DNA of 64,000 nt. Source: an uncultured Pseudomonadales bacterium (GTDB lineage: Bacteria; Patescibacteriota; Microgenomatia; UBA1400; UBA12028). The stretch lies in NCBI GenBank assembly GCA_964635905.1, contig CAZWPK010000001.1, forward strand, positions 68,894-132,893, read 5' to 3'. Position numbers and translations under genes: made by a program. Every line of letters begins with the position of its first letter. Positions within the stretch are counted from its first letter, which is position 1. Under the pieces are notes generated by a model that was not told the DNA's origin, made no database searches, and worked only from the letters and a program-made list of their open reading frames with translations. Shown here piece after piece: positions 10,824 through 33,500 of this stretch.

Positions 10824-10900
10824 CCCGTATCCTTCTTCAAATTTGGTTTTCCTTGTTTCGTTAAAAAGTGCTATTCTTATTCCTTAAAAAGGAGAATCCT

Positions 10901-11113
10901 ATGGCAACAATTGAAGAGCAAATGGAGAGAGCACATCATTTCGCTGACACCAGTTCAGTGATTGGTAGGGGATTTAGGCCATCACCTGGAGTAAAGGAAA
11001 TAGAACTCAATGATCCAGACCTAACGACTGAACCCGGAACAAAAGTAGATCTTTCAAAAGAAACGCAATCACCATTCATGCGTTTTCTACGAACGATACT
11101 CCGGAGCAGATAA
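10901..11113 (+). CDS. small hypothetical protein (70 aa)
   Basis: ATG at 10901 is preceded by AAAGGAGAATCCT (SD-like) and sits in frame within track ORF 10868..11113. Acidic N-terminus. Confidence 0.4.
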   Translation: MATIEEQMERAHHFADTSSVIGRGFRPSPGVKEIELNDPDLTTEPGTKVDLSKETQSPFMRFLRTILRSR

Positions 11114-11339
11114 CGGCTTATTTCCCAACCACTTGCTTTAGGGCATCAAGCACAAACTGGACCACAAACTTAATCAGTTGTGCGCCAAAGATAATCGTCT
11201 TTTCAAGAATTGACGTTCCTGCCTGTATAGCAACACGTTTAAAATCGTTTTTATCGGGTTGGTAGGGGGAGTTGTAGGCCATGGGCATAGTATACTCCAG
11301 ATACCGACATGTCGTCACGGTGCTACAATAGTAGGCTCT

Positions 11340-12311: not shown

Positions 12312-12437
12312 CCAGAATGCGTGGAAACCACCATTTTCGGTAGACATGATCCGTTCTGCTGTATCTAGAAGTAGAAAGATGTGGATAGATCATGTCTTGA
12401 AGTACGCGGTGAATGTTCTGGTAATGGTTAGTATGAT

Positions 12438-14218: not shown

Positions 14219-14755
14219 ATGGCAGTGACACGTCAAAAATTCTTTCTCGATTCTGGTTTTACTCTTCTTGAGTTAATTGTTGTGATGGCAATTATTGGCA
14301 TCCTCGCAATGCTGGCGGTAGGCAACTTTCAATCCAGTCGAATCAAAGCTAACGATGCACGACGGAAGAGTGATTTAAAACAAATCCAGGCTGCTTTAGA
14401 ACAATATCATGCAGACTTTGGAAACTATCCTGGATCTGCCAGTAATGGAACTATCCTAGGTTGTGGAGCGGGGACGTCAACGTGCAGTTGGGGTGCTGCC
14501 TTTTCGATTACTGGAGGGGCAGTGTATATGAGTAAATTGCCCTCAGATCTGTCTCCTCAACGGTACTATTATGTGGGAAGCACAACAGGTCGATCTTACC
14601 AACTGTTTACCACCCTACAAAATACTCGAGATAATGACAATACCACCTTCACTGCGATTGCACCCAACTGTGCCTCCACGGGGACACTGGCGTGTACCTA
14701 TGGAGTATCCAGTTCAAATGTCACGATCGGTAGTGCTGTATCTACCATGCCATAA
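14219..14755 (+). CDS. type IV pilin / pseudopilin (prepilin-type N-terminal cleavage/methylation domain)
   Basis: N-terminus ...SGFTLLELIVVMAIIGILAMLAVGNFQ (class III signal, G|FTLLE). C-terminal Cys pairs (GCGAGTSTCSWG; CASTGTLACT). Confidence 0.85.
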   Translation: MAVTRQKFFLDSGFTLLELIVVMAIIGILAMLAVGNFQSSRIKANDARRKSDLKQIQAALEQYHADFGNYPGSASNGTILGCGAGTSTCSWGAAFSITGGAVYMSKLPSDLSPQRYYYVGSTTGRSYQLFTTLQNTRDNDNTTFTAIAPNCASTGTLACTYGVSSSNVTIGSAVSTMP

Positions 14756-14765
14756 AGGAAATGCT

Positions 14766-15263
14766 ATGAAGATCAAAGTGCTTTCGCGTTTTGTCCTCCA
14801 ACAGGGGTTTAGCTTAGTGGAATTGATTGTGGTTATTGCGATTATCGGAATCCTTACTGGACTAGTGGTAACCAATCTTTCTGGCGCTCGGGAGCGTGCC
14901 CGTGATGCACGACGAAAAGCAGATCTTCGGGCTATACGGGATGCACTACAGCTGTATCAAAATGATTATGGTGCATTTCCTGGAAATAATGCTTCTGGCC
15001 AAATCTTAGGTTGTGGAGCCTCCGGAACATCTGCCTGTGCCTTTGGCAGTGCATTTAGCGCAAATGGGAATGTCTATATGGGGCGTATTCCGCAGGATCC
15101 ACTCAATCGGAGTACCTATGTGTATCGCTATGCGGCAAATGCAACCGTCGATTATTTGTTGACAACAAACCTAGAAAACATCTCCGATCCGGATATCGCC
15201 AAATCACAAACGCGTTGTAACGTGTCGACAGGTGGAACACAATACGTGGTGTGTAACCAATAG
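14766..15263 (+). CDS. type IV pilin / pseudopilin paralog
   Basis: MKIKVLSRFVLQQGFSLVELIVVIAIIGILTGLVVTNL. Shares the YxxDxGxxPG...ILGCGA...C..G.AFS core with the upstream pilin. ATG 14766 is in frame with the longer track ORF. Confidence 0.85.
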   Translation: MKIKVLSRFVLQQGFSLVELIVVIAIIGILTGLVVTNLSGARERARDARRKADLRAIRDALQLYQNDYGAFPGNNASGQILGCGASGTSACAFGSAFSANGNVYMGRIPQDPLNRSTYVYRYAANATVDYLLTTNLENISDPDIAKSQTRCNVSTGGTQYVVCNQ

Positions 15264-15664: not shown

Positions 15665-17800
15665 CTATTCCTCCGGCACATCCGGAATCGCCGATGCGGA
15701 GGCAATCCCTGCGTCATCCGTCAAGCTGACGGGGGTGTTGACTTTTGGAGTGGCACTTTGGGTCGCCTCAATGGCTTGTGGTCGAGGCGTTGCTGTTGGC
15801 TTCGGGGTTGCAGAAGGCGTTGCTGTCTGTGTCGCCGCTGCGCTGGCGGCATCCCCCAGTTTCTTGCGTAAGGCATCTGCTTCTACTTTAATTTTTTCAT
15901 ATTGTGGATCATCTTGTTTGATCAGAGTGAGAGTCTTATCTAAGTAGGCAAGCTGTTGTGGTTCCTTTTTTACTTCTTTTGCAATATCAGCCAAGTTAAA
16001 GTACGCATTAGCGTAATCTGGTTTGAGTTGGACGGCCTGTTCTAATAATCGAGTAGCCTGGTCTAAGTTTTTCGCGCGGCGGAAAACACCGGCTAAATCA
16101 ACCCGGATTTTAGGATCCGATGGCGCTCGTTGAATGGCTTGAACATAGGCAGCAACTGTCCATTGGTCAGCTTGTTGTGCAGCTCCAATCAGTGCTTCAT
16201 AGATGGTTGCTAAGGTTTGCCAGTTGGCTACATTAGCAGGATCAAGCGCTACTGCAGCTTTTGCTTCATTAATCCCTTGTTGAATCAAGGTGAGCGCTGT
16301 CTTTCGATCATCCTCCGAAGGTTCTTTTTTTTGTGTTAATCCTTGGGCAATCAGTACGTTCGTGTTTGCAAAGGAACGGCGAAATTCCTCATGATGGGGA
16401 GCGATTTGAATTGCACGTCGTGTTAAATCGTACGCATCTTTTGCCTTATTTGCTCGAATGGCAGCTAATGATTGATTAAAAACAGTTTTGGCAATCGCTG
16501 AACGGATGTTAAAGAAAAGGGCAATTCCAGAAAGAGCGCACAAAACCACACAGACAAATCCCAAGACACCAAAAGCAACCTGACGTTCATCCTTACTTGT
16601 CTTATCCTTCGCGTTGACTAATGAGAATTCCGACTCCTCCACTCCCTCACTGGGAAGAGAATAGGAACGGGTATTTGTTGCCCATACCATTGCCAACAAG
16701 GTAAAGAGAGCAAGCAAAATGACATTGACGGGGAGAAGAAGGAAGAGAATGACGATCGTTAGGGTTGCGGCGGCAACAGGTAAGTCTTGTTTCTGTGTTT
16801 TTCTCAGTAACGCAAGAATTCCCAAGCCAATGAGAGCTAGTGCTGATAAACCGACAATTCCATGGGTCACCACAATATCGAGTGGGAAGCTACGAGCATT
16901 TGCGTATCGAATGAACCAGAACTCACCTTGGTTCATGGCAACAGGGCGCAAAATGCTAAAAGCATTGAGATAACTTTCAGTTCCAACCCCTAGGATTGCA
17001 GTACGTGGATTTTTAAGCACATCGAGCGCAATACTCCAACTTTGCTGAAAACTCATTAATACTGGACTTTGTGGTTGACCGGGAAGCAAGAGAGAGGCAT
17101 TGAGGAGCAATCCTAAGACCATGAGTCCACTCATCGCAGCGACAACCAATTTTTCTACAGTTTTCTTTGAAGTTACAAAAAATGTGAGTGTAGCAGCCAA
17201 TGCGACGATAAGCACCGTGGTATTGAGAAGAGGACCTCCATTGGGAAAGATTCCCGAGAGGGTGGAGTTGCCCGCACCAATCAAGGGGTTGAGGTTTATT
17301 CCAACCCGATCGAGCGCAGAAAGGATACTTATTATTACTCCACTGGCACCCAAGGCGTAGACAATTTTTGACGTTAATCGACTATGTAGCAACGCCGTTC
17401 CTAGGAAGTAAAGTAAAGCACAAGCAATATAAAACATTCCTGTCCCAGTCAGAGCTGCCATTTTATTTGGTGCGGAAACAACGATTGACATTAATGTCGA
17501 GAGGAGTAAGACAATAAATCCAAGGTTGAGTGGGGTGCGTGTGATCACTAACTTACGACGGAAAAAGGAAAGAACTGCAAAAAGAGTCAAACCAATCAAC
17601 GCTAGGGCAATGACAATCAGTCGTTTACCACCTTCAAAACTCTCCGGTAGAAAAGGGAGAAAAGCCAACGGAAGCAAGAATGTTAATCCGACAGCACTAA
17701 CGGCACTGAATTTGGAGAGAAGTGAGTTGCGCATAAATAAAACCCTTTGTAGAGCTAACAACCGGAGTATAAGGTTATCGAATATTCTTTCCTTCCACAA
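15665..17800 (-). CDS. O-antigen ligase-like (Wzy_C) polytopic membrane protein fused to C-terminal TPR repeats and a Pro/Thr-rich tail; candidate pilin/protein O-glycosylation ligase
   Basis: About 12 TM in the N-terminal 400 aa, with a loop motif RSFPLDIVVTHGIVGL resembling the ligase H-N-x-x-L...E-x-G-x-x-G block. The C-terminal 250 aa carry TPR-like helices (AYVQAIQRAP, DYANAYFNLADIAK). The tail is ATQTATPSATPKPTATPRPQ. Confidence 0.55.
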   Translation of the reverse strand: MWKERIFDNLILRLLALQRVLFMRNSLLSKFSAVSAVGLTFLLPLAFLPFLPESFEGGKRLIVIALALIGLTLFAVLSFFRRKLVITRTPLNLGFIVLLLSTLMSIVVSAPNKMAALTGTGMFYIACALLYFLGTALLHSRLTSKIVYALGASGVIISILSALDRVGINLNPLIGAGNSTLSGIFPNGGPLLNTTVLIVALAATLTFFVTSKKTVEKLVVAAMSGLMVLGLLLNASLLLPGQPQSPVLMSFQQSWSIALDVLKNPRTAILGVGTESYLNAFSILRPVAMNQGEFWFIRYANARSFPLDIVVTHGIVGLSALALIGLGILALLRKTQKQDLPVAAATLTIVILFLLLPVNVILLALFTLLAMVWATNTRSYSLPSEGVEESEFSLVNAKDKTSKDERQVAFGVLGFVCVVLCALSGIALFFNIRSAIAKTVFNQSLAAIRANKAKDAYDLTRRAIQIAPHHEEFRRSFANTNVLIAQGLTQKKEPSEDDRKTALTLIQQGINEAKAAVALDPANVANWQTLATIYEALIGAAQQADQWTVAAYVQAIQRAPSDPKIRVDLAGVFRRAKNLDQATRLLEQAVQLKPDYANAYFNLADIAKEVKKEPQQLAYLDKTLTLIKQDDPQYEKIKVEADALRKKLGDAASAAATQTATPSATPKPTATPRPQAIEATQSATPKVNTPVSLTDDAGIASASAIPDVPEE

Positions 17801-17839: not shown

Positions 17840-20800
17840 CTATGGAGAACCACTGGACGGGCCAAATTTAACCGCACTTCCAGCTTGCATGAGCTTAAGA
17901 ATTTGAGCTTGTGTAAGGGGGTAACTGTAGATTCGAAAGTCATCAATTTTCCCTGTAAACCACGAATCGGGACTATTATCTTCAATTTCTCCGATTGTGG
18001 CATTCTCGGCATCTGTTGCAATATCATCAAACCAATCATCAAGAGTTCCGGTGCCTGCTAACGTTGTGGAAGCCCAGTTAACAGGTTTGGCATTGATGTA
18101 GAGATCGACGCCAGTGCCATCTTGCACATAACAGATATGTTCCCAGGTCTGTCGTCGGACTACATCGTTTGCTGAAAGATAGGTAATCTGATTTGATGTA
18201 GTGCTATTTCGAAGACTTGCGTAAACTGCAGCAGAGTCAGCGCCGGTGTCTGAGATAAAAAAGTTATGTTTGACATTCGATCCAGTGGAGTCAGAATAGG
18301 AAAAGAGTGTTCCTTGTGTCCCTACGTCTGTCGGAACGTCATAATAAAACCAGGAACACAGGGAACCGATAGTTTGGGTATCCATGATGTCATCCGGCAG
18401 CGCAACATAATCATCGGTCCCATCAAAATTAAGGGAGGCGTTAATTTTCCCCGTTGCCCCATTTCCCCAGGCAGTTGAACTTGTGTTACACGTGCCAACA
18501 GCTGTTTGAGACCCTGAACTTGTTCCAAACCAGGTTCCATGGTTTGTGTTTCCACTAACATCATTCATTGCGGTTCCTTGACATTCGTCAAATTGGTAGA
18601 AAAGAAACGGACCACCTCGATTATAGTCATATAGTATCTGTGTTGGTGTTCGTGCGTAGTTATAGATTACCGTGTGATCGATCGTGCCATCAAATAAATT
18701 GGATCCGGCGGATGACTGGCTTCCCCAAGTCAACGTGTTGGCAACTCCCAATCCAAGCCCCATCGTCGCGGTTCCCGTTTGGAGGACTCCGTTAATATAC
18801 AAACTCGGTGTATTACTGGCTCCCACGAAAACTCCAACCAAGTGGTACCAAGTATTGAGGGCGATAGCAGGATTACTCGTCGAACAGCCAGCGGTGTAGT
18901 TGGTATTTGACTTTTCAATTTCAAAGATAACGCGCGAGCCACAGGTTCCATTCGAGCTACCTACTAACGCAAGATGGTAGCCATCCGTACCTCCACTTCC
19001 AATTTGATAGGTCAAAATACGATGATTGATCGCGGCAGAAATCGTATCCACTTTTATCCACGTTTCGACAGTAAAGGATCCTGACCCAACTAGACCAAAG
19101 ATGGAGTTTGCCATCTGCATGACGTCATTATTGCCGTCAAACTGTAGACCGTTTCCAATTTTCCCGCGTAACCATCCCGTGTTTTTGCGATCCTGACCAA
19201 AGTTAGCATTCAGGGTAGCAGTATATCCGTTTCCGGAGGTATCAGGTGCGGACGTTCCACTCTTCTCGTCTAATTTCCATTCCCCTAAGGGAGGCCATCC
19301 CGCTCCATCCGCGAGTTGTCCAGATTCGCTGGCAGCAGTCACACCCAAATTCAAACTTGATCCGGCATTAAAATCCATGGCAATTTCTTGATCAGACATG
19401 ACTGTTTGGTAAATCTTAAACTCATCAATATACCCCTGATACCCATAGGTAGCCGAGGAAAGACCTTGGTATCCTCCAACATACGGTGTCCCGGTGTTGA
19501 CTTCAGCAGCACTATCAGAATAGGTGTCGGTATCAACATGTCTGCCGTTGTAATAGGTCTTGATAACTTTATTGACCCGATCATGAGAGATGGCGATATG
19601 CTGCCAGCTCCCCACCACAATTGGTGCCCCTAGCGTCACTTGAATTGCTGAACTCCCATTGGCGTATTGATACTGAAAGAGGGTTCCACTGACGTTAAAG
19701 TAGATCCAGTGAAACCCTACTGATGTGCTTTGTGCTCCGCGGTTATACAGTGTCGGCAGGGTAGAATTAGTCAAGGAAGTGGGATTAATCCACATACTAA
19801 AAGTGATGCCATCTTTGCCATCGATTGCAGGGCTGGATGTACCAGTGATAATGTCTCCAGAACCATCCATAGACAAGGATCCGTTTACTTTCCCATTCTT
19901 TTTAAAACTTGCGCCGGTAACTGTACCATTGTCCGTTCTACTTCCTGTATGGTGAGCAATAGCACCGGAGGATTCATCCATCGCCCAATACAAACTTGGA
20001 GAGAGGTTTTGGACGGTAGTCCGACTTCCATTGAAGTCTTGGTTGACTAAGCGATACGTTCGCTCGTAGTTGTAGATTATTATCTCATCTACGGAGCCAG
20101 TAAAATCATTCGAGGTGCCATCAGCATCAATTCCGATATACAGTGGATCGGAGTTGGTTAGCGTATTGGTTGCCGTCAACGAAGAATCGGTGGCAATCAG
20201 TAATCCATCGATATAGAGTTTTAGACTTGTAGCACCTAATTTCACACACTCTACATGATGCCAAGTATTGTCATCGTAGGTTGCCGCCGTGGACGTCGCA
20301 GAGTCGGTCGGTGACCAAGTCGAGTCATAATCTAACCCACACGTAATATCCCCATCCGATTCCATAATGACCTTGTAGCCAGCCTCGTTAAATTTGGACA
20401 GAATGACTTCTTGGGCAGAAGCGGTTTCATGTTTGAAAAAGAGGCTAATCGACATGTCCGCATCATCGGCAAAATCAAAATCAGCATCATCGGCACGTGT
20501 TAAATGCTGATTGGATCCAGCAAAGGCAATTCCTGATCCATATTTTCCGGTCTTCCAAGTCGGGGTATTCGTTAAGGTGAGCTCATTATCTCGTGTGGAA
20601 GTATCAAGCGCCGTACTCCCGCTATTATCGTCAAGATTCCAGTACCCAACAGGACTGGGGGGTGTGGCGTACAATTGCCGAATTTCTGCAGGACTTAACG
20701 CGCGATTATAGATACGTGGTTCATCGATTAGACCATCGTAATAGTCCGATCCCCCGAAGGAATAATGCGCAGCTCCCACGAGAAAGGTTTCACCGGTGTC

Positions 20801-22501
20801 CCCAATTGCGCTCGGAGCTCCAGTGGAAGTTGCTGCTAGTTCACCGTTGACAAAGACATTGGCAATCCGGGTTCGGGGGTCATAGGTTCCCGCTACATGA
20901 TACCAAGTTCCTGTCACTAAATTGCTGGTAGCTGTAGTTACCAAAAAGGTGTCTGTATCGATAAATAGGCGGACTTCATCGCCATATTGCGTCAGAAGAT
21001 AGCTTAAGTTCGTATCGTCCCACTTTCCGATGATATTAAAGTGTGTGGCTGCAGTAGTGGACTCCGGTTTGATCCATGCAGATAGGCTCAGGGCTCCGGT
21101 GACCGACAGAGTTGCATTGTCAGCAATGTACAAATAATTGAAGCTACCACGCTCGTTATCAATGCCATTTCCATATTTGCCATTGGCGTAGGCAGTGCTG
21201 TTGGCATTGGTTAACGTAAATCCATTTCCCGAAGCATCTGCGGCATTTCCGCTACTTTCATCCAGTTTCCAATAGCCAATTAAGCCATTGCTTAACGTAT
21301 CTTGGGGTTGTCCACCCAGCTTACCGGCGAACTGATTATAATCCGATTTAACCTGCGTTGCGCTGCGACCGTACGTATACAATTTAACTTCATCAATGCT
21401 TCCTAAAAACTTCTCTACACCATCGGCTCCTGCCGTTACGGCTCCAATCGTTAAGGCATAGGTATCATCCGACATGGCTTCAGTCACGCTACCTTCGGCT
21501 CGCTGCAGCCCGTTGACAAAAATACGTTCTGTTGTGCTATCGCGGCTGTACACCACATGGGTCCAGCGACTGGTTACGATATTTGCGGTGGTGGTTCGAA
21601 ACTCCTGCCAGCCATTCCCATTTTTGTAACTCACAGCAATTTCGTCTTGATCTAGATATAAGCTGTAGGCACGTGCATCCCAACTACTTGGAGTGCCTTT
21701 ATGCACAATGCCTTGCCAGTCAATGGTCGTACTGTTGGGGAAAATCCACGCTTCAATCGTCAGCGTATTTCCTAGATCCAACGTGGGATCATCGGTTGCC
21801 AGTACATAATCATTGGTACCATCAAAGCGTAAACACTTATCGACGACGCACTGACTATTGGTAACCCAGACAGGGTCATCGGTAGAGATGGAGGTCGAAC
21901 TTCCAAAGGTCGCATCATTGTCATTTGCGGTCGAATCTTGTGTCACTTGTCCGGTTCCTTCGTTAAATCCCCAGTACGCGACAGGACCTGGGGTAGATTC
22001 TTCGGACTGGAGGGCGAGAGAACCGAGGCCGGAGGCAGCGGAGGAGAAGTCAGCGGATTCAAATCCATTGGCAATGGTGGGGTTGCCATAATACATATAG
22101 TAGTTGGATTCCCCAGCTGGGAGGGAATCAAAGAGGACATGGATGTTGGCCGTGGCATCACAATCTACGACATAGAATTTGAGTAACTGTCCATTTTCTT
22201 TGGTGAAGCGGAGATCACCACAATCAGCTTGGAACTTGGTAGAGTCTGTGGCATCAAAGGAGGGGACAGAGACATAGACAGAGGATTCTAAGGAGGAATG
22301 GGAGGGGATGTTGACTCGTTTTCGATAGGCCCAATTGGCATCAAACCAGGCTGCTTGACTTAAGGGAGCTTGACGTAAGGAGAAGAATACCAAGGGGATG
22401 AGAATGAGTACAACAGGAAGAGTGATCGCCAAAATCAGGAGTCGAGAAAAACTCCGGGAACGTAATTTCCGGTGACCACTGCGAATGCGCTTCACTCTCA
22501 T
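17840..22501 (-). CDS. 1553-aa N-terminally anchored surface protein: DUF2341-like N-terminal module plus multiple LamG/concanavalin-A-like lectin domains
   Basis: N-terminal TM LILAITLPVVLILIPLVFF, then WAYRKRVNIP...CGDLRF...YYV (DUF2341-like). Repeated Laminin_G_3-like blocks with FDGTNDYV / FDGTDDYVALPD / LQFDGNNDVM / W..L..W.H. C-terminus ends FGPSSGSP. Confidence 0.8.
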   Translation of the reverse strand: MRVKRIRSGHRKLRSRSFSRLLILAITLPVVLILIPLVFFSLRQAPLSQAAWFDANWAYRKRVNIPSHSSLESSVYVSVPSFDATDSTKFQADCGDLRFTKENGQLLKFYVVDCDATANIHVLFDSLPAGESNYYMYYGNPTIANGFESADFSSAASGLGSLALQSEESTPGPVAYWGFNEGTGQVTQDSTANDNDATFGSSTSISTDDPVWVTNSQCVVDKCLRFDGTNDYVLATDDPTLDLGNTLTIEAWIFPNSTTIDWQGIVHKGTPSSWDARAYSLYLDQDEIAVSYKNGNGWQEFRTTTANIVTSRWTHVVYSRDSTTERIFVNGLQRAEGSVTEAMSDDTYALTIGAVTAGADGVEKFLGSIDEVKLYTYGRSATQVKSDYNQFAGKLGGQPQDTLSNGLIGYWKLDESSGNAADASGNGFTLTNANSTAYANGKYGNGIDNERGSFNYLYIADNATLSVTGALSLSAWIKPESTTAATHFNIIGKWDDTNLSYLLTQYGDEVRLFIDTDTFLVTTATSNLVTGTWYHVAGTYDPRTRIANVFVNGELAATSTGAPSAIGDTGETFLVGAAHYSFGGSDYYDGLIDEPRIYNRALSPAEIRQLYATPPSPVGYWNLDDNSGSTALDTSTRDNELTLTNTPTWKTGKYGSGIAFAGSNQHLTRADDADFDFADDADMSISLFFKHETASAQEVILSKFNEAGYKVIMESDGDITCGLDYDSTWSPTDSATSTAATYDDNTWHHVECVKLGATSLKLYIDGLLIATDSSLTATNTLTNSDPLYIGIDADGTSNDFTGSVDEIIIYNYERTYRLVNQDFNGSRTTVQNLSPSLYWAMDESSGAIAHHTGSRTDNGTVTGASFKKNGKVNGSLSMDGSGDIITGTSSPAIDGKDGITFSMWINPTSLTNSTLPTLYNRGAQSTSVGFHWIYFNVSGTLFQYQYANGSSAIQVTLGAPIVVGSWQHIAISHDRVNKVIKTYYNGRHVDTDTYSDSAAEVNTGTPYVGGYQGLSSATYGYQGYIDEFKIYQTVMSDQEIAMDFNAGSSLNLGVTAASESGQLADGAGWPPLGEWKLDEKSGTSAPDTSGNGYTATLNANFGQDRKNTGWLRGKIGNGLQFDGNNDVMQMANSIFGLVGSGSFTVETWIKVDTISAAINHRILTYQIGSGGTDGYHLALVGSSNGTCGSRVIFEIEKSNTNYTAGCSTSNPAIALNTWYHLVGVFVGASNTPSLYINGVLQTGTATMGLGLGVANTLTWGSQSSAGSNLFDGTIDHTVIYNYARTPTQILYDYNRGGPFLFYQFDECQGTAMNDVSGNTNHGTWFGTSSGSQTAVGTCNTSSTAWGNGATGKINASLNFDGTDDYVALPDDIMDTQTIGSLCSWFYYDVPTDVGTQGTLFSYSDSTGSNVKHNFFISDTGADSAAVYASLRNSTTSNQITYLSANDVVRRQTWEHICYVQDGTGVDLYINAKPVNWASTTLAGTGTLDDWFDDIATDAENATIGEIEDNSPDSWFTGKIDDFRIYSYPLTQAQILKLMQAGSAVKFGPSSGSP
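21971..22433. repeat. about 463-bp perfect direct repeat, copy 1 (5' coding end of LamG gene 1)
   Basis: Nucleotide-identical to 27035..27497 by direct comparison. It encodes the shared TM anchor and DUF2341-like module. Confidence 0.8.
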
Positions 22502-22645
22502 AGTATGCCAATTTTTTCTTGATTGTACTAGGGATAAATCAACAGTGAAGGAACAATCTACAAGATCATATTGCTACAAAAACATCCATACCATGACAAA
22601 AAAGACTCACAATATAGGGCGAAGCATCAGAACAAAACGACCATT

Positions 22646-25600
22646 CTACGGTGAACCCGAAGACGGTCCAAAGAACAGAGAGGCGTTGTTGTTATAGAGT
22701 TTGCGGGCGTGATAGATGGATAAACGATAGTTAAAGATTTGTAGTGCATCAATTTGACCGGTGAAATTATTACTACCAACCGTTGCTGCATACGTGCCAA
22801 TGGTTTTGCTACGTCCGGTTGTAGTGATGGTATTTCCGTTAAAACCAGCGCTTCCCGAGACAGTTTTACCATCTAAGAACATGTAGACCTCATGACTGCT
22901 CCCATTGTAACTGAGGGTACACACAAAGTGGTGCCAAGCACCGTCGTTGACCAGCGGGGAAGGAGAAACGGTCCCACTTCCGGAGGCATTGCCGACATTA
23001 CAAGCAACGCGATTGGTGGTGTTTACATAGATGTTAAATCGGTGGGTTGTAGTAGTCCCCACATTGGAAAAAATGTATCCAATGCCACCGGAATAATCGG
23101 CCGAAGTTTTGAACCAGACGCTTACTGATTGTTCTCCGACGTCGGGTGAAAAGATGCTGGTATCGGCAATCGAAACATAGTCATCACTCCCATCGAAGTT
23201 TAAGCTTCCATTAAATTTCCCAGTCGATCCATTTCCCCAGGCAGTGGAAGCGGTAGTGCAGGTACCAGCGGTGGTTTGGGAGCCGCTAGCCCCAACGGTA
23301 AGGGTGCCGTTGTTTCCTTTCCCAGAAGAGTCGTTTAAGGTGTTTCCTTGACATTCATCCAGTTTCCAATGAGCGATGGGAGCTCCCCGGCTAAAGTCAT
23401 AGGCAATTTGAGCATCGGTGCGGGCATAGTTATACAACTTGAATTCATCCACCGACCCATTCAAGAAAGAGTCGGGACTATTGTCTTGGATGTTGCCTAT
23501 CGTAACCGCTTCCACCGAGGCTGCACCATCATCAAACCAGTCATTTAAGCTCCCAGCTCCGCCATCGGTGGCGGTGACCGCAATCTTTACGCCGTTGACA
23601 AACATCTCGACTCCCAAGCCGCTCCCAGCTTGGCGCAGACATAGATGTGTCCAGGTAAGACGGGGAATGGCATTGTCGGCAGAGGTGTAATCGTACGCAT
23701 CATTGGCGGTGCCATCTTGTCGAATGTGGACGCGTAAACGGGCGATATCACTCCCCGTATCAGAGATATAGATCGAATGCTTGGTCACCGTTCCTCCGGT
23801 GTCGGCAACGGAGAAAAAGCTGCCCTGCGTCCCATCATCAGTAGGCTTATTGTAATAGACCCAACCACACACAGTGCCTACGGTGTGACTGTCCGTACTA
23901 TTGTCCGGAAGGGCAATAAAATCGTCGGTACCATCTAACCGCACCCCTGTCCCAATTTTCCCTTGCGTCCACACGGGTCCACTAGTCAGCGTCCCGGTGT
24001 TTCCCGTGCTACTGGTATCAACAGCAGTAGTGCCAGTATTGTCATCGAATTGTAAATAGGAAGCTGGGGGATTCCCGCTCCCATCCACGGATTGGGCACT
24101 CTCGGCGGTGGAGGTGCTATTGATATTTAAGGCTGCGTTGGCATTCGCATCCACACGAATTTCTTCGGAGCTAAGCTCACCGCTGTAGATTTTAAACTCG
24201 TCAATTCTTCCATCAAAATTTGCGGTGGTTGTTCCGCCAACCAGGAAATTTGCCGTATCTGTAATTGCAGGGGAACCCGATCCATTCGTGGAGGTTCCTT
24301 TCCGTATTCCATTTACCCACAGACTAATCTCATCGTCGCTATCATCTGTATATGTTAGGGCAATATGGTTCCAGGTGCCGGTAGTGATCGGAGAACTTAC
24401 ATTAAGCGTTGCGTCGCTTCCGGTTAAATCTAGACTACATTCAATATCCAGATTACTTCCTGACTGGGAATCTACCCGACACCAGGTAGTGGTGCCTTTA
24501 TAAAAAATTTGACCCACATCATTTTCGCCATCAGAATCGGCATTAATCCAAGAAGAGATCGTGACACCTTGTGTTAATGTCACATCAAAATCAATCGCAT
24601 CACCATTGGTGACTGTTAGGACGTCATCACTACCATCAAAGTCTAAACAACCATTGAGTTTACAGTCGGTTTTGGTTTTCCAAGTGGTGCCGGTTAAAGT
24701 CTCTGTAAACGCGATACTAGAGCGGGAGTTAATGGTGGTGCCTTGGACTTCATCCAATGCCCAATAGGCAATCGGAGAGCCAACCGGGGAACCGGCCAGT
24801 GGATGTCCCCCATTCATATCTTCAATAATTTGTTCACTGGTTCGCTGGTAGTTATATACACGAAGATCATCCATTTTCCCCGGGAACTGGGTTGAAACAC
24901 CACTGTTAAGAGCTCCTATCAAGATTGCAGCGTTGCTACTTATTCGTCCCGCGATCGCGCAGGTTTTTACCAGGACGCCATTTAAATAGATACGAACGTT
25001 CACTCCGGTTAGTGTATCTTCATAGGTGACGGCCGCATGACTCCAAGTATTGGCGGAGAGAATTCCTGTGGACGTATTGCAGCTAGTTAAGACCGATTGG
25101 GTTTGGTTGCGTACATTTCCAAACAGTCCGCCTCCAGCAAGCTGTGCCAGTCCAAACCCATATGTGGACCCATTTTCTCCTCCGGCAATCACTCCAGCAG
25201 GTGTGATTGTAGAAGGATTGATCCAGGCCATGACGCTGGCACTCCCGTTGGTGATGGTATATGGTGTGCCAACCGATCGTATATAGTCATTCACCCCATC
25301 AAAAAATCCAGCTTTGCCAAATTTCCCCTCGGCTCCACCCATGGGTCCAGTCGAATTTGGACACGCAATTGCTGAATAGGCATTTCCCGATTTTTCCTGT
25401 ACTGTGGCGGTTGAACAGTCATTGGTCCAACTCCCTTCATCCATGGGCCAGTACCCTATAGGTCCTGTAGCCCAGTTGGCAAGTTGTTCGATTGCAAGAG
25501 GTGAGAGGGCGCGGTTATAAATGCGAGCTTCATCGATAATTCCTTTGTACGGGTGGGTTGTGGGTGCACCTCCCAAGTACACGACTTCGGTTCCGGTATA

Positions 25601-27568
25601 TAAAGTGCCGGTATAGGTCGTGCTACTTTCCAATTTTCCGTCAATAAAAATAGACGCTCGAGTCCCATCCATGGTCGCGGCAACATGATGCCAAATTCCA
25701 TCATTGACTAGGGTTGTACCTGCGACTGCCACTCCATCGTTTACTCCTCCAACTTTGGAAAATAACACGATGGAGCCATCGGTTCCGTACGCACCTCCTG
25801 ATGTAAGACCGAGCCAATAATTGCGTGTGGTATTGCTATCGTTATCTTTGGATATAAACGTCTGTAAACTTCCTGAGGACGTCGTCTTCACCCAGGCGGC
25901 TAGAGTGAACTGTTGCAGTTGGAGGGAAGCAGCATTGGCAACGCTGATGTAGTCATTGGTTCCATCCATCCACACCGCGTTGCCAAAGCGCGCGGTGCCA
26001 GTTTTGTGGACAACTTGATAGTTACACGAGTTTAAGGTGGCAGCGAATGCATCCGTGGTAAAGGTTTTAGTACTCCCCACATAGTCGTTAATAACACGGA
26101 TGGTGTTAATCGTATTACCGCCACAGGTTGCGGTGATTTGCAGATACATTCCAACATACATGTCGTCAACGGACGACAGTGTTCCATCGGTATCAACTAA
26201 CACCGTTGTAGATCCACCGGAAGCATCGGCCGTCCCACCTTCATTTGTGCCGGTGATGGTGCCAGTATTCCCGATGCCCGAATCATCAACCACCGACGTT
26301 CCTGCCGTCAGTAGTTCATCCATCTTCCAGTAGCCAACGAGACCTTCCGAGAGAAAGGTGGTGGGGTCGTTTCCTCCTAGTTGAGCGGCCCGATTGCTAG
26401 CCATATCCATTTTTATCTGGGCGGGGGTACGCGCGTACCCATACATTTTGACCTCATCGATATATCCTTTATACAAATAGGTCGAACTATGGTTAAATCG
26501 ACCGATGCTTAAGGTTCCGGCGGTCGCGGTGTCGCGTGTTCCCGAAGTACTCGAGCTTGTGGCTACAGCTACACCATCAATGTACAGGGTCATTGTCGTG
26601 CCGGAAACCGTACATTCTAGATGATGCCATTTACTATCGCGATAATTCGTCGTTACGATGGCCTCTAGGTATGTGTTTCCTGAATTGGCTTGGTACACTT
26701 TACAGTGCAGAGTTTCATCGGTATGAAAAAAGATGGCATAGAGCCAGTCGTTGCTAGTTCCATAATTGACCAACACGTGACTGGACCCGGCGGGTCCAGG
26801 ATTTTTGAACCAAAGGGAAGTGGAAAAGTTTCCCGTAAACTCGAGCGCATTAATATCTCCCACGTTGACATAATCTTCCACTGCATCAAAGTATAAACAA
26901 CTTTCACTCACACAGCGATCTTTCGATTGCCAGACAGGGTCGGTGGAGTTAGCAGATGTCGAGTTGCCTAATGTGCCATCATAGTTTTTTGTCGTACTAT
27001 CTTCGATAAACTGTCCCTGGGCTTCATCCATCTTCCAGTACGCGACAGGACCTGGGGTAGATTCTTCGGACTGGAGGGCGAGAGAACCGAGGCCGGAGGC
27101 AGCGGAGGAGAAGTCAGCGGATTCAAATCCATTGGCAATGGTGGGGTTGCCATAATACATATAGTAGTTGGATTCCCCAGCTGGGAGGGAATCAAAGAGG
27201 ACATGGATGTTGGCCGTGGCATCACAATCTACGACATAGAATTTGAGTAACTGTCCATTTTCTTTGGTGAAGCGGAGATCACCACAATCAGCTTGGAACT
27301 TGGTAGAGTCTGTGGCATCAAAGGAGGGGACAGAGACATAGACAGAGGATTCTAAGGAGGAATGGGAGGGGATGTTGACTCGTTTTCGATAGGCCCAATT
27401 GGCATCAAACCAGGCTGCTTGACTTAAGGGAGCTTGACGTAAGGAGAAGAATACCAAGGGGATGAGAATGAGTACAACAGGAAGAGTGATCGCCAAAACA
27501 TAGAGCCGACGCAACGAACGAGATGCTGGTATGCGTTTTTGATGTCGTTTCATTAGTTGATAATCCAC
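22646..27568 (-). CDS. 1640-aa paralog of the upstream LamG/DUF2341 surface protein
   Basis: N-terminal 165 aa are identical to the 17840..22501 product apart from the first ~25 residues. Multiple LamG blocks (FDAVEDYV, MDGTNDYISV, FDGVNDYI, FDGSDDVLTV, LDGTDDFIALPD, FDGSDDYVSI). Same FGPSSGSP C-terminus. Start overlaps the giant gene's stop by 16 nt. Confidence 0.8.
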   Translation of the reverse strand: MDYQLMKRHQKRIPASRSLRRLYVLAITLPVVLILIPLVFFSLRQAPLSQAAWFDANWAYRKRVNIPSHSSLESSVYVSVPSFDATDSTKFQADCGDLRFTKENGQLLKFYVVDCDATANIHVLFDSLPAGESNYYMYYGNPTIANGFESADFSSAASGLGSLALQSEESTPGPVAYWKMDEAQGQFIEDSTTKNYDGTLGNSTSANSTDPVWQSKDRCVSESCLYFDAVEDYVNVGDINALEFTGNFSTSLWFKNPGPAGSSHVLVNYGTSNDWLYAIFFHTDETLHCKVYQANSGNTYLEAIVTTNYRDSKWHHLECTVSGTTMTLYIDGVAVATSSSTSGTRDTATAGTLSIGRFNHSSTYLYKGYIDEVKMYGYARTPAQIKMDMASNRAAQLGGNDPTTFLSEGLVGYWKMDELLTAGTSVVDDSGIGNTGTITGTNEGGTADASGGSTTVLVDTDGTLSSVDDMYVGMYLQITATCGGNTINTIRVINDYVGSTKTFTTDAFAATLNSCNYQVVHKTGTARFGNAVWMDGTNDYISVANAASLQLQQFTLAAWVKTTSSGSLQTFISKDNDSNTTRNYWLGLTSGGAYGTDGSIVLFSKVGGVNDGVAVAGTTLVNDGIWHHVAATMDGTRASIFIDGKLESSTTYTGTLYTGTEVVYLGGAPTTHPYKGIIDEARIYNRALSPLAIEQLANWATGPIGYWPMDEGSWTNDCSTATVQEKSGNAYSAIACPNSTGPMGGAEGKFGKAGFFDGVNDYIRSVGTPYTITNGSASVMAWINPSTITPAGVIAGGENGSTYGFGLAQLAGGGLFGNVRNQTQSVLTSCNTSTGILSANTWSHAAVTYEDTLTGVNVRIYLNGVLVKTCAIAGRISSNAAILIGALNSGVSTQFPGKMDDLRVYNYQRTSEQIIEDMNGGHPLAGSPVGSPIAYWALDEVQGTTINSRSSIAFTETLTGTTWKTKTDCKLNGCLDFDGSDDVLTVTNGDAIDFDVTLTQGVTISSWINADSDGENDVGQIFYKGTTTWCRVDSQSGSNLDIECSLDLTGSDATLNVSSPITTGTWNHIALTYTDDSDDEISLWVNGIRKGTSTNGSGSPAITDTANFLVGGTTTANFDGRIDEFKIYSGELSSEEIRVDANANAALNINSTSTAESAQSVDGSGNPPASYLQFDDNTGTTAVDTSSTGNTGTLTSGPVWTQGKIGTGVRLDGTDDFIALPDNSTDSHTVGTVCGWVYYNKPTDDGTQGSFFSVADTGGTVTKHSIYISDTGSDIARLRVHIRQDGTANDAYDYTSADNAIPRLTWTHLCLRQAGSGLGVEMFVNGVKIAVTATDGGAGSLNDWFDDGAASVEAVTIGNIQDNSPDSFLNGSVDEFKLYNYARTDAQIAYDFSRGAPIAHWKLDECQGNTLNDSSGKGNNGTLTVGASGSQTTAGTCTTASTAWGNGSTGKFNGSLNFDGSDDYVSIADTSIFSPDVGEQSVSVWFKTSADYSGGIGYIFSNVGTTTTHRFNIYVNTTNRVACNVGNASGSGTVSPSPLVNDGAWHHFVCTLSYNGSSHEVYMFLDGKTVSGSAGFNGNTITTTGRSKTIGTYAATVGSNNFTGQIDALQIFNYRLSIYHARKLYNNNASLFFGPSSGSP
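27035..27497. repeat. about 463-bp perfect direct repeat, copy 2 (5' coding end of LamG gene 2)
   Basis: Identical to 21971..22433. The two copies are 5064 bp apart. Confidence 0.8.
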
Positions 27569-30500
27569 CAGTTAAACTCCACATCCTTACTCAAGGCTTG
27601 GTCCAGCGTGACCGTAAACCCACCCACGGTAGTAGTTGTCTCGTCTTGACCTTGTTTGCCAGAGACATACAAGACTTGGTTATTCGTACTGCTCGTTGGT
27701 GTGATATAGATTAACGAGTCCGAGGACACTTGAGTGGTATAAATAATGACATCGGTTTGTCCTTGCTTCAAGACGGCTTTTCCAGTACTTGCGTTTGTTG
27801 CCGATCCACTCGCTGTGGTTGGGGCGCTCAAGGTCAGTTTAGCAAAAGTTGCAGATCCACTGGCATCAATAGAGGCAACTTCTGTCATCCCGCTCTTGAT
27901 GGCAAGTTTGCCACTTTCACTGGAAAGAACCCCACTCTCACTAGCCAGTTGAATCCCTAAAATCTTGGATTCCGGAGCAATCAAGGTTGTTGACAGTTGA
28001 CCCTGGACGGTCACGTCTTGGGTAAAGAGAGCGTCGGTTGTCACCACTAATCCACCTTCGCGATTAAGGGTGAGAGCCCCAGCTAACAGATCTAAGGTTC
28101 CAGTCCCGGTAGCTTGGACATAAAGGGTCGACTCGGTGTCGGAAATAAGATTAATCGAGTTTTTGTCAAATGCCATACTGCTTCCTACAATGAGGGCCGT
28201 ATTGATGTGAGCATTGGTGATACTGGCCGTGCCTTGGACGTTTAAGTATTCGTTAGCAAAAACCGCATCGGCCGAAATCAGATCCGCAGAACTGCTAGCC
28301 TCTGTATTCCAGTCGGCACTGTCGGAAAGCAGATCGGAGACAATCAATTTAATTTCTGGATTCAAACTCGCAAGCAATTCATCCTTTTGTTGTCCGGAGA
28401 TTGTGGAATCCTGAGCCAACAGGGATGAAATGGAAGCTTCTGCGGTAATTAGCCGATTTGCCATTTCGGTGATATTTTTAGCTGTCAAGTTTCCAGAGAT
28501 GGTGGCCTCGGCAGCCGTCAGAATTCCAGAGATGGAGGCTTCTCGAGTATCCACGCGCTCACTCTGGGAAACTAAGTATCCATTTTGTGCAATCGTATCG
28601 ATGACTAAGTTATGCAGACTCTTTCCCCCAACGGTTAACGTGTCTGTTTGAATCGACGAAGATTGAATAGTTCCAGCAATCAACGTGGTAAAGACATTAC
28701 TCGTAGACTCCACAATTTCGGAGAGGGAAGCGGCAATCGAACGAATCAGCGTTTTATTGGCTTCTGCTTCTGGATTACTGGCAAGTTGTGCTAATCCATC
28801 AGCAACCATTTGGCCTTGGTTATCCAGTGCCATCGTGGGATCAGCAAACGATGGATTCACATACACTAAGACGTCACGATCTCCAGAGCCTGGGGTCCAA
28901 GCTTCCAAGGCATATCCGATAATATAGCCTGGTTTATTGGCTTTGGTAGCGCGTCCCGATTGTGTCGAAGGTCGCAGCGGATCTCCGGGGCGAATGGAGC
29001 CTTCTTGATCGTCTAGTTTAACATCGAGCTGTCCAGTGAATCCAACCAAAGCATAACTGGCAGCAATTTGTTCATCGGTTTTCCCTTTAGGGTAGTTTCC
29101 AACAAAACCAGCGCGATTGGAGGTGATACCTAAGAGTTTGTCTCCGGACTGGAATCGACGCACTTTTCCAGTTTCATAGTTAATACCCACGACTTCATTA
29201 GTGGGCAGGTCGCCTTCCTTTTCAAAGTATTCTGCAAGGTCGGCACCCGTAGTTTGGAAGGCAGCTTCACCATAGACTGTTCCATCGGCTCGGACGCGGA
29301 AGACTGAAGCAGCATCAGAACGTGTTAAGGAATTGTACGCGGTAATTAAGTTGTAGGCAGTGGTAGATGATCCAGCCCCTTCAACAGTCAATACACCTGG
29401 ATCACCTTGGGCGCCAGCGGTTCCTACGTTGGTCATGGTGATCGCTCCCGTGTTTCCGTTACGCACCAATAATGAGATGGTATCCAGATCATTGGTGGTG
29501 ATAAATCCACCCGCCACATTAAGATCAGTGGCGGTTGTGCCGGTTACCGATGTGGAGGTGTTACTAACCACAAAGTTCCCCGTACCTGTTAGGTCGGCGA
29601 CGATATCGCCTCCATTGTAGGTGCGTAGAGTCAAGTCGTTACTCTCATAATTTTCTCCGGCTTCAATGTAGAGCGGAGCCTTGGACTTGATAGAAGATGT
29701 CGTTTGATTGGTAAACTGCAAATCATATGCCATTGAGACATCCCCAGGGGCATTAAAGGCGACTGGTAAGGCGGCAGTGATAGCAGTCTCAGAGACAGAG
29801 AAGAGAGATGAGGCCGTGTCAGCAACCGAGAACAAGTTGCCACTGGTACTGCCATTGGTGCCAATGTTGATTCGGAAGAGATCTCCAGTGGCAGACGTTG
29901 CCGATCCCGGACTCCAATCGAAGTTGGCTAAGAAACCGGAAGTAAAGGCTGTAGAGGTAGAGGCGAGGGAGAGACCGGTACCGGAGGAGAGGGCATTAAC
30001 GCTGAGCGCTAATCCAGTCCCTGTAGCCGTTGCAGACTGAATGAGCATACCGGAGGTACCAGCGGTGACTAATTCCAATCGATCATCAGTGGCTTCATCA
30101 TAGCCCAAGGTCCAATCTTGATCCAAGCCGAAAGCAATTCCATTGTCGTCACCCAAGAACAACTGCTCCCATTCCGCAGCTGCAGATCCTAGTGAATTTC
30201 CTTCGGCGGCGCCAGCTGTCAAGTTGGTGGCATTCAGGGCTAGTTCGGCAACAGAATTGATGTAGAAGGTAGCGGTATCTGCCGTGGCTTCTCCTAAATC
30301 GATGTTTTCACCACCTGCAGTGGTAATGTCACCACCGCCTACACTCAAATCTCCAGAGACTGCTGTGGTTGGTGCGGTAATGGTAACAGTTCCATCCGTA
30401 TCGTTATCAATTTTTTCTCCATTCGCAAAGGTGATATCTCCACCAACCCCTGAAAGTGTTAATCCTGTGGTCCCGGAAATGGTAGTATTTCCAGACAGCG

Positions 30501-33500
30501 TGAGATCTCCACCAGAGGGAGCGATGGTCAGATCCCCGTTCGTATCGGTGGTCAAGTCGGAGTAGGTAGACCCATCAGCATAGGTTAGTCGTAATTGAGA
30601 ACCGGAGGTAGCTAAGACATCGAGTTTTCCATCCGGTCCGGTGGTTCCGATTCCCACATTTCCAGAGGTGTTGATCGTTAAGAAGGCATTGGTACCTGGT
30701 GTTGTTCCATCACCAATCTGGAAAAGGTCGTCATCATCCGACCCTGCATCTTCTTGAACACCTAACCAGAAATCGGTATCGGTGGCTGTCTTCGTATCCA
30801 AAATAATGTTGGGATCTGCAGAGTTGATCACCACATCTCCGGTTCCTTGGAAATCAAAGACGGCATTTCCAGTTCCATAGGTTTGGAAGGAAAGGTTGTT
30901 GTTTTCAAATGATTCACCAGCTTGCAGAATCAATGGTCCATAAGACTTGATATAGGCTGCTGTTTGATTGGTAAAGAGGAGATCGTAGGCCATCGAGACA
31001 TCCCCAGCTGCCGTAAAGGAAGTTGGGAGATTTGCAGTGATTGCAGATTCTGAGACCGAGAAGAGGGAAGAACCAGTGTCTTCAATATCAAAGAGATTTC
31101 CAGTTGTTGTCCCATTCGTACCAATATTGATTCTAAAGAGATCTCCAGAGGCTGTTGTGGCTGATCCTGGACTCCAGTCCAAACTTGCAAGACTTCCGGA
31201 AGTTAAGGCTGTAGATGTAGAAGAGAGAGCCAAACCCGTTCCGGAGGAGAGGGCATTAAAGGTGGTGGCAAGACCAGTCCCTGTAGCTGTTGCAGACTGA
31301 ATTAGCATACCGGAGGTACCAGCGGTGACTAATTCCAATCGATCATCAGTGGCTTCATCATAGCCCAAGGTCCAATCTTGATCCAAGCCGAAAGCAATTC
31401 CATTGTCGTCACCCAAGAACAACTGCTCCCATTCCGCAGCTGCAGATCCTAGTGAATTTCCTTCGGCGGCGCCAGCTGTCAAGTTGGTGGCATTCAGGGC
31501 TAGTTCGGCAACAGAATTGATGTAGAAGGTAGCGGTATCTGCCGTGGCTTCTCCTAAATCGATGTTTTCACCACCTGCAGTGGTAATGTCACCACCGCCT
31601 ACACTCAAATCTCCAGAGACTGCTGTGGTTGGTGCGGTAATGGTAACAGTTCCATCCGTATCGTTATCAATCTTCTCACCGTTGGCAAAGGTGATGTCTC
31701 CACCAACTCCTGAAAGAGTTAATCCTGTGGTCCCCGATACAGTCAGGTTTCCAGCTGCGGTAATCGCGCCAGCAGTTAACGTCATGGAATCGGAGGCAAA
31801 GGCGAGAGTTGGATCGGTAGCACCTGCATCAAAGGTCCAGGTAAATCCAGATCCGGATCCATAGGTGGTAGTGCCAACTTCGGTAGAATCCCAGGCAATG
31901 TCATCGGCGTTAATATCAATCGCGGTTCCTTCACCGACATTCAAGGTCACATCGCCGGTGATTCCACCACCCGTTAATCCGGAGCCAGCGACTACACTGG
32001 TAATATCTCCACCGGATCCTGCGATCGCCGCATCCAGGTCATCGAGGACATCTTGCACGGTTGTCGAAGCGGAATTACCAAACTCATCAAAGACGCCAAC
32101 TAACGAAGCTCCAGAAGTAATATTGTCTGTTCCCACATCATTGAGGCCAATGGCACCGATGGTTAAGTCTCCACCGGTATTGATGGTGAGATTCACGACA
32201 TCCGAGACAGTACCGGTGTTAATATCGATACCATTAATTGTTTCAGCAGTTGCTGCGGTGATGGCTCCGGAGGCATCAACTTGGAAGGCGTTTGCGGTAC
32301 CAGAGATTAATGTTCCCGATACATCCAAGTTTCCAGTGATTCCAGTAGAACCAGCAGTAATGGTGAGGGCATCGGAGGCAAAGGCGAGTGTTGGGTCGGT
32401 AGCACCTGCATCAAAGGTCCAGGTGATTCCTGATCCACTTCCGAATGTGGTAGTTCCTAGTTCTGTGGAATCAAAAGTCACGGTGGGACTCCAGGCTTCT
32501 CCAGCGGAACCAGAGACATCGATGGCTGTTCCTTCCGTGAGTCCGGCGATATAATTCCCAGTGGTGTCGGTGCCGAGGGCAACCGAGTCTGAAGCAATGG
32601 TGAGTGCGGTTGTATTAGCTGCACCCAAAGTCGCAGTCACATCACCGGTGAAGGTGTGACCAGAGAGAAGTACCGTACCTGTTAAGTCAGGGAAGGTAAT
32701 GGTCTTGTCCGCACTCGTTGCATCGGCAACGGAGAAGTACGTTTCAATCGTGTTGGCAGTGGCCCCTTCAAAGATGAGTCCTGACACACCAAACTTGGAT
32801 TCATTCGCCGCGAGGGTGTGATCTCCAGATAATGCTGCAGTGAAATCGAAGGCGATGGCATCCGCAGCAACACTAATTCCGGTTCCCGCTCCAATGTTGA
32901 GTGTTAATGCTCCAACTGTTCCACCACCTGTGAGCCCTGATCCTGCAGTGACTCCAGTTGTTGCATACGTTGCCACGTTGTTGGAGTCTACCAGCGTTCC
33001 GGATCGTCCATCGAGGAGTAAGAGTTCTGCTGTAGAGAGAGTTCCACCAGTAACGGTGACATTGTTGGATCCTAATGCCAACGTTCCAGCTGCAGTGATT
33101 GTGCCAGCCGTGAGGGTCAGACTATTGTTACCAGCAGCGAGGGTGGGATCGGTTACTCCAGAGCCATTCAAGGTCCAGGTGAAGTCAGAACCGGATCCAT
33201 AGGTGGTTGTTCCAACTTCCGTCGAATCCCAAGCGATATCATCCGCGTTAATATCGATAGCCGTGCCTTCACCAATATTTAAAGTGACATCTCCAGATAC
33301 TCCTCCGCCTGTTAATCCTGAACCAGCAGTCACAGAGGAGATATCTCCCGCCAAAGCTGTAGTGATCGAGGCATCGAGGTCATCTAAGACATCTTGAACG
33401 GTTGTTGAGGCTGAGTTTGCGAATTCATCAAAAGTTCCAACCAAGGATGAACCAGAAGTAATATTGTCTGTTCCCACATCATTGAGGCCAATGGTTCCGA

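Follow-up and report, generated by a model that had tools for sequence, protein, structure and literature searches.

Two tandem genes, A and B, on the minus strand of a 64,000-nucleotide (nt) stretch of contig CAZWPK010000001.1 (the window) probably encode paralogous exported lectin-array proteins. Their shared 5' module would have been made identical by recent gene conversion and their arrays altered by domain replacement, with no dedicated switch. Both products are uncharacterised proteins of a known type: paralogous lectin-domain surface proteins that evolve by conversion and domain shuffling. Coordinates are those of the window unless another contig, designated L0xx, is named. The parts of the two genes are listed below; a slash marks the predicted cleavage site.

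17840..22501, minus strand: gene A, 1553 residues; signal peptide, DUF2341 module, six LamG domains and C-terminal FGPSSGSP, from the open reading frame (ORF), translation and Pfam
22352..22501, minus strand: signal sequence of gene A, residues 1-50; charged n-region, hydrophobic core of ~22 residues and SQA/AW, an AxA signal-peptidase-I type site
21971..22351, minus strand: DUF2341 module of gene A, residues 51-177; predicted seven-strand beta-sandwich
21281..21982, minus strand: LamG domain 1 of gene A, residues 174-407; variable position
18608..21280, minus strand: LamG domains 2-5 of gene A, residues 408-1298; domain 5 at 18608-19288
17843..18607, minus strand: LamG domain 6 and tail of gene A, residues 1299-1553; mosaic relative to B
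22646..27553, minus strand: gene B, 1635 residues from the ATG at 27553; architecture as in gene A
27035-27415, minus strand: DUF2341 module of gene B, identical to that of A
26339..27046, minus strand: LamG domain 1 of gene B, residues 170-405; variable position
22649..26338, minus strand: LamG domains 2-6 of gene B, residues 406-1635; ~80-residue insert in domain 2, present in the L044 orthologue too
21971..22434, minus strand: copy 1 of an exact repeat, in gene A; 464 nt, residues 24-177
27035..27498, minus strand: copy 2 of the exact repeat, in gene B; 464 nt, residues 20-173; direct repeat, 5064 bp from copy 1

The initial annotation, made from the letters of the sequence, had described tandem ORFs of 1553 and 1640 residues. 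Both are present on the minus strand. The product of gene A is identical to the database protein P0264. The ORF of gene B as listed runs to a GTG at 27568 (22646-27568, 1640 residues), but the gene most likely starts at the ATG at 27553, since this codon overlaps the stop codon of the giant upstream gene as TAATG and yields the 1635 residues of the database copy, P0268, which comes from the same NCBI contig as P0264. The overlap suggests that gene B may be translationally coupled to the giant gene.

Pfam scans found both of the expected families in both proteins. Laminin_G_3 (PF13385) scores 434.7 bits in A and 410.6 bits in B against a cut-off of 27.6 (E 1e-131 and 4e-124), and DUF2341 (PF10102) scores 31.7 and 34.7 bits at residues 93-145 against a gathering cut-off of 23.4. 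The arrays had been put at 6-8 LamG domains; the six Pfam stretches and a motif segmentation agree on exactly six in each protein. As proposed, the central parts are similar at the level of the family only. LamG domains of A match those of B at 25-37% identity, the background level for any pair of LamG domains from these proteins. An AlphaFold2 model of the DUF2341 module alone, built from a 93-sequence alignment, has a predicted local distance difference test score (pLDDT) of 86, and its comparison with the PDB returned no informative neighbour. A model of the module together with LamG 1 (13-sequence alignment) was discarded at a pLDDT of 52.

The 5' ends of the two genes stand apart from this background. 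An identical N-terminal segment of 155-165 residues had been reported; the exact identity covers 464 nt and 154 codons, but excludes the first ~20 residues, where the charged n-region of the signal sequence differs between A and B. The block spans the hydrophobic and cleavage regions of the signal peptide and the complete DUF2341 module, and ends at the YW that opens LamG 1. Both flanks drop immediately to about 50-60% identity, and the match greatly exceeds what chance would give. In tandem pairs on other contigs, the paralogous 5' modules are less alike.

Window: 100% amino acid identity, 100% DNA identity, longest exact run 464 nt
L047: 86% amino acid identity, 82% DNA identity, longest exact run 107 nt
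L044: 76% amino acid identity, 72% DNA identity, longest exact run 16 nt
L002: 71% amino acid identity, 68% DNA identity, longest exact run 19 nt
L049: 68% amino acid identity, 68% DNA identity, longest exact run 19 nt

Contigs L044 (SRR21621036) and L049 (SRR25168019) are perfectly syntenic with the window. All three share the order giant gene, B orthologue, A orthologue, TPR membrane protein, small ORF, two pilins and ABC2 permeases, and the flanking proteins of L044 are 78-91% identical to those of the window. Because each window gene has its own orthologue there (P0013 for A; P0012 and P0274 for B), A and B are old tandem paralogs, duplicated before the L044 and L049 lineages arose. Their 5' modules are clearly diverged on both contigs, and we therefore read the 464-nt identity as the likely product of recent, lineage-specific gene conversion between the paralogs, or of an equivalent recombinational replacement. 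Protein-level constraint cannot account for 464 identical bases, since the window module is 74-81% identical to the L044 copies in protein and only ~70% in DNA. An identical 5' block is the ordinary signature of conversion between tandem paralogs. The conversion would have covered exactly the stretch over which the paralogs remained similar enough to recombine.

A comparable case is known from the babA, babB and babC genes of Helicobacter pylori. These paralogous surface binders are near-identical at their 5' (and 3') ends and diverge in the middle, where binding specificity resides, and gene conversion has been shown experimentally to homogenise the ends and reshuffle the genes, which encode outer-membrane proteins of a diderm and occupy dispersed loci. 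The proteins are unrelated to A and B, which lie in tandem and for which conversion is read from comparative genomics alone.

It is very unlikely that the identity was created in assembly or polishing, by a consensus that homogenised two merely similar modules or joined two strain alleles. The sequence is an assembly from an uncultured organism, and consensus polishing is known to handle exact repeats poorly. However, the tandem arrangement is present in three syntenic genomes, the B-A spacer and both unique flanks are distinct sequence, and the block ends exactly where the homology between the paralogs ends. Mis-mapping is implausible as a way to homogenise modules that were ~70% identical. 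The source contig is ~505 kb long and resolves other exact repeats of 449, 368 and 120 nt in the giant gene.

These are direct repeats of 449 nt (38003-38451 = 39242-39690), 368 nt (30044-30411 = 31304-31671) and 120 nt (33209-33328 = 36881-37000), and they sit atop repeat units of ~1.3 kb that are 70-85% identical. They suggest very recent duplication or conversion inside the giant gene as well. Taken with the 464-nt block, they are the reason to regard repeat homogenisation as evidently active across the locus. In the tandem pair of L047 (4712-14686), the module and domain 1 are 82-98% identical and the last ~170 residues 90-98%, with a middle of 14-48%. The ends of this pair have been homogenised independently of the window pair, so the pattern of constant ends and a variable middle recurs in the evolution of the family.

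Sliding identity between orthologues is 55-95% over most of their length but only 12-40% across whole LamG domains, and the breakpoints coincide with the domain boundaries. The low-identity domains are domain 1 of both genes and domain 5 of window A. Domain 1 of window A is 32% identical to domain 1 of the L044 and L049 A orthologues (41% over a 138-residue head segment only) and 51-52% identical to their domain 5. Domains 2, 3 and 4 of window A align in the same order as in the L044 A orthologue, with identities of 60, 75 and 66%. Domain 5 has no counterpart in that protein (~33%) and is best matched by P0135 (54%), while domain 6 is orthologous to its domain 6 at 73%. In window B, domain 1 is 35-39% identical to that of the L044 and L049 B orthologues and 31% to that of P0272; domains 2-6 run in the same order as in the L044 B orthologue, with 55-71% identity.

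Five or six related genomes hold three unrelated types of domain 1 in the A series (window; L044; L049, P0265 and P0266) and three in the B series (window; L044 and L049; P0272). The type found in L049, P0265 and P0266 is a LamG domain with a ~320-residue insert of propeller-like repeats. In the L049 A orthologue (8341-14010, residues ~280-700) this insert consists of about six repeats of ~55 residues (…SAWTTQTAPDG…KLYYAAY.H…) with the look of beta-propeller blades, and P0015 carries a comparable array inside a LamG domain, with WDGS.FSWPTG repeats. Some LamG types are strongly conserved: P0016, P0067 and P0113 have domains that match domain 3 of window A at 71-76% identity, while their modules reach only ~50-72% identity with the window module. 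Overall, the LamG arrays evolve faster than the flanking genes and also appear to change by whole-domain replacement, chiefly of the first LamG domain after the module.

The locus had been interpreted as a constant anchor with a variable lectin array. On an evolutionary scale, the pairing of a constant module with a variable array is supported by the whole-domain replacement in colinear orthologues. A comparison of copy number and middle region among relatives had been suggested as a check, and the locus is not invariant: L001, L013, L016 and L046 have a single gene, the window, L044, L049, L047 and L002 have two, and domain 1 differs.

A final LamG domain similar in both proteins had also been noted. 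The match of domain 6 of A (A6) to that of B (B6) extends over a ~70-residue head (ECQG...SGSQT..GTC..STAWGNG) and an 8-residue tail only. Overall A6 and B6 are 35-37% identical, but the core of A6 is closer to domain 5 of B, at 41-45%. The tails read KFGPSSGSP in A and FFGPSSGSP in B. The codons for FGPSSGSP differ between the genes, including TCG against AGT for serine, which argues that the tail is kept by selection on the protein and not by recent conversion. The tail had been called unusual; it is present in both proteins, but 84 of 92 relatives end in [FY]GPxxGxP or RFG.

The initial annotation further proposed exchangeable adhesin cassettes, with recombination between the identical 5' segments deleting, duplicating or swapping the genes. 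In its strongest form, this would be programmed variation, with the segments maintained as a recombination handle through which arrays are lost, duplicated or exchanged and the expressed adhesin changes. We consider this quite unlikely. Homologous recombination would act efficiently on a perfect 464-nt direct repeat whose copies lie 5064 bp from each other, copy number is 1 or 2 among relatives, the domain beside the constant module is the one most often replaced, and the L047 pair has homogenised ends too. However, the handle is not conserved, as the paralogous modules of L044 and L049 are 68-72% identical in DNA and share no run longer than 19 nt. Genes A and B are both complete ORFs, each with its own start codon and separately startable. 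The window contains no silent partial cassettes and no further fragments of the module or of LamG domains. Scans of its ORFs of at least 150 residues, which covered all but two lying inside other genes, revealed no recombinase, invertase or reverse transcriptase. There are no repeats of the template/variable (TR/VR) kind, the sole repeat between A and B being the exact 464-nt block, and a deletion between direct repeats is irreversible. The complete genes, with neither silent cassettes nor a recombinase in the window, also set the locus apart from cassette variation of the pilE/pilS or vlsE type.

Under the preferred reading of conversion and domain replacement, the present repeats would permit a 5064-bp deletion, or a duplication, by homologous recombination as a by-product and not through a dedicated switch. 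Such recombination is physically plausible, and a deletion would leave a single gene with the leader of B and the array of A.

Several points weigh against parts of this account. The direction of the conversion is ambiguous: at 80-81% to the B orthologues and 69-75% to the A orthologues, the overall identity of the window module favours the B type, but ten diagnostic sites divide into 6 B-type and 4 A-type. The replacement of domain 1 rests on lost similarity, for which extreme local divergence is the alternative, except where length and content differ grossly, as with the ~320-residue repeat insert in L049 A. The comparison was made between related genomes and not within a species. The pilin genes found near the cluster in the window are not adjacent to it in L001, L013 and L046, and this neighbourhood is kept only in the closest relatives. 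For every member of the family, binding, surface location and cleavage of the signal peptide are predictions from sequence.

The family was delimited by a search with the 133-residue module alone against 1.84 billion cluster representatives. It returned 2916 matches at E<1e-3 and 101 at E<1e-30, most of them in proteins of 1450-1700 residues with the module at residues ~35-200. We define the family operationally as DUF2341 followed by ~6 LamG domains and take its statistics from 92 complete-looking members, which have a median length of 1541 residues and a modal LamG count of six. The C-terminus is [FY]GPxxGxP in 56 of the 92 and a shorter ...RFG in 28 more. A and B share the features of the family: a hydrophobic signal with AxA before a W-x-D-x-x-W-x-Y-R module, a length of ~1500-1650 residues, ~six LamG domains and a C-terminal motif of the RFGPxxGxP type. 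Relatives named in the database are listed as 'DUF2341 domain-containing protein' and all come from lineages of Patescibacteria, the candidate phyla radiation (CPR), such as Daviesbacteria, Woesebacteria, Collierbacteria, Moranbacteria and WWE3.

The hydrophobic N-terminus had been taken for a transmembrane (TM) anchor. In both A and B an AxA motif lies just before the invariant Trp (SQA/AWFDANWAYR). Across the family, Ala is found two residues before this Trp in 86 of 92 members, and A, S, T or V four residues before it in 80 of 92. As the motif is family-wide, a long, cleavable, Gram-positive-style Sec signal peptide is more likely than a permanent anchor, and A and B would be exported via Sec with cleavage of the signal.

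LamG/concanavalin-like proteins of CPR and DPANN are generally presumed to be attachment factors (PMC11310336; 10.1101/2025.02.25.640227; PMC9563170). A and B resemble them as exported multi-LamG proteins of an ultra-small, presumably host-dependent bacterium; such proteins are candidate adhesins, none of which is characterised. On the strength of the domain type and this literature, A and B may act in adhesion. The LamG array would bind glycans or other ligands on the surface of a host or partner cell, with LamG domain 1 as the putative specificity determinant, and the DUF2341 module might have a constant role such as docking to a fibre, the envelope or a pilus. In the literature, we did not find a description of the fixed layout of signal peptide, DUF2341, ~six LamG domains and RFGPxxGxP, nor of a replaceable first LamG domain or a conserved cluster with a giant MerR-type protein.

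For DUF2341, the literature predicts a role as one of the components of type-IV-pilus-like systems (PMC4858521; PMC11809585). The archaeal DUF2341 proteins of type-IV-pilus loci (MJ1470/arCOG03508; PMC4858521) resemble A and B in having the domain within a large extracellular protein, and the cluster has pilin-like genes next to it in the window, L044 and L049. In contrast to the archaeal proteins, A and B have a signal of the Sec/AxA type and not of class III (prepilin), the 64-kb window has no gene for a pilus assembly ATPase or platform (PilB/PilC-type) in ORF scans, and pilins are not near the cluster in distant relatives. The role of the archaeal proteins as tip adhesins is itself a hypothesis only (PMC4858521). 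The haloarchaeal Tat-fimbriae subunit TafC (NF052521; PMC11821415) was the only NCBIfam match. At 208.7 bits for A and 144.8 bits for B against a cut-off of 410, neither protein is a member, and the match is confined to the LamG part of the profile (positions 149-369), corresponding to the six LamG repeats.

Concanavalin-like folds also occur in glucanases and lyases, and A and B could be secreted carbohydrate-active enzymes or serve nutrient capture, with variation of the arrays tracking substrate and not host. Pfam gives weak matches, below threshold, to 3keto-disac_hyd, Polysacc_lyase and a sialidase N-terminal domain. By sequence, the closest PDB entries include an arabinanase, matched at its LamG-like domain, and in structure the DUF2341 module comes closest to accessory beta-sandwiches of glycosidases. 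However, all such matches fall within the LamG fold, most of them scoring under or close to their cut-offs, Pfam and NCBIfam scans detected no catalytic domain in the 1553 or 1635 residues, and the partners in the cluster are a giant fibre-like protein and pilins. We therefore regard this possibility as distinctly doubtful and retain surface binding as the preferred reading.

The choice of host by ultra-small CPR bacteria is an open question in which LamG-type surface proteins are the usual suspects, and the locus offers a comparative handle on it. The first LamG domain after DUF2341, exchanged on a fixed scaffold, is a small and testable candidate for the specificity determinant, and the conserved cluster is a target in those few Patescibacteria that are amenable to genetics. 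While this mode of evolution is ordinary for surface-binding proteins, it provides a lead on host recognition.

The ORF listing places four genes in a row on the minus strand: the giant gene, gene B, gene A and the membrane-protein ORF. These neighbours and the divergent pilin-like genes are as follows.

27553..42510, minus strand: giant gene, 4985 residues; N-terminal MerR-type helix-turn-helix (HTH), one TM segment, ~1.3-kb repeats, Peptidase_G2/IMC near the C-terminus
22502..22645, minus strand: B-A spacer, 144 nt; weak sigma-70-like match TTCACT-16-TACAAT
15665..17734, minus strand: TPR membrane protein, polytopic with C-terminal TPR, ~689 residues from the Met at 17734 (ORF 15665-17800, 711 residues)
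14219..15263, plus strand: two type-IV-pilin-like genes (N_methyl and T2SSG) at 14219-14755 and about 14766-15263, divergent from the cluster

A scan of the 144-nt spacer detected no terminator-like site, and promoter-like matches around it are no commoner than in shuffled sequence.

A large gene precedes the DUF2341-LamG gene or genes in L001, L002, L013, L016, L044, L047, L048 and L049. Wherever its N-terminus is visible (window, L016 and L048), the protein starts with a MerR-type HTH followed by a TM segment. The order in the giant protein is a cytoplasmic MerR-type HTH, the TM segment and a long, repetitive extracellular part; a DNA-binding domain on a giant surface fibre is odd. The Peptidase_G2/IMC autoproteolytic domain at residues 4384-4472 is of the kind found in phage fibre and spike proteins. 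A and B may be functionally coupled to this protein.

Orthologues of the TPR membrane protein come after the LamG gene or genes in L001 (15362-17353), L013 (15199-17127), L044 (12571-14643) and L049 (14115-16187). Profile searches against the PDB returned TPR matches only, or none. The L001 and L013 orthologues show a weak match to Wzy_C (O-antigen ligase), below the cut-off (E 0.003 and 0.012), and in L001 a GT2 glycosyltransferase comes after the orthologue. The protein may take part in glycosylating the surface proteins or pilins.

The two pilin-like genes lie 2.4 kb from the LamG genes, an arrangement also seen in the synteny of L044 and L049. Their identity to the L044 pilins is 83-92%, and the true start of the second ORF is probably at residue 66 of the ORF as listed.

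A more far-reaching proposal, which we hold to be improbable at present, is that the MerR-HTH/TM giant fibre, one or two DUF2341-LamG6 proteins and the polytopic TPR protein form one host-attachment organelle specific to Patescibacteria. DUF2341 would mount the array, LamG 1 would be a swappable host-specificity cassette, and conversion of the module would bring new arrays under the same mounting and expression context.

Two sequences met among the relatives call for separate comment. P0006, a protein of 227 residues on 11 contigs (L036-L043 among them) from several samples, is a truncated remnant of the family: its DUF2341 module stops at '...SLPAG' and runs into a LamG fragment, and an 88-residue LamG piece follows. 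It was considered as a recombinant of the window locus and rejected, as it looks like a decayed or deleted copy in another context. Contig L001 (CAZGEA010000002.1) is labelled 'uncultured Gammaproteobacteria bacterium' though it carries a Patescibacteria-type cluster of giant gene, DUF2341-LamG gene, TPR membrane protein and GT2; a binning or taxonomy error probably accounts for the label.

Genes for four-helix-bundle proteins ('23S rRNA-intervening sequence protein'/bAvd-like) adjoin members of the family in L048 (5583-6143 and 10639-11004), L036 (9025-9903) and L046 (7034-7375). Neither a reverse transcriptase nor a template repeat goes with these genes. The Avd-like genes of L048 led us to consider a diversity-generating retroelement, which was rejected, as L048 has no reverse transcriptase or TR/VR pair; in the window, the scan of ORFs of at least 150 residues and the repeat search found neither.

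Upstream of the giant gene, ~870 nt (42511-43379) hold no convincing ORF and matched no Rfam family. The remaining window is an ordinary small-genome chromosome, with Obg, an ABC transporter, ATP synthase, iPGM, LeuRS, ComEA/ComEC, two tRNA-Ala and the two pilin-like genes. The ComEA/ComEC competence genes lie at 60520-62441 on the plus strand, and a TrwB/VirD4-like coupling ATPase is encoded at 54676-56880 on the minus strand.

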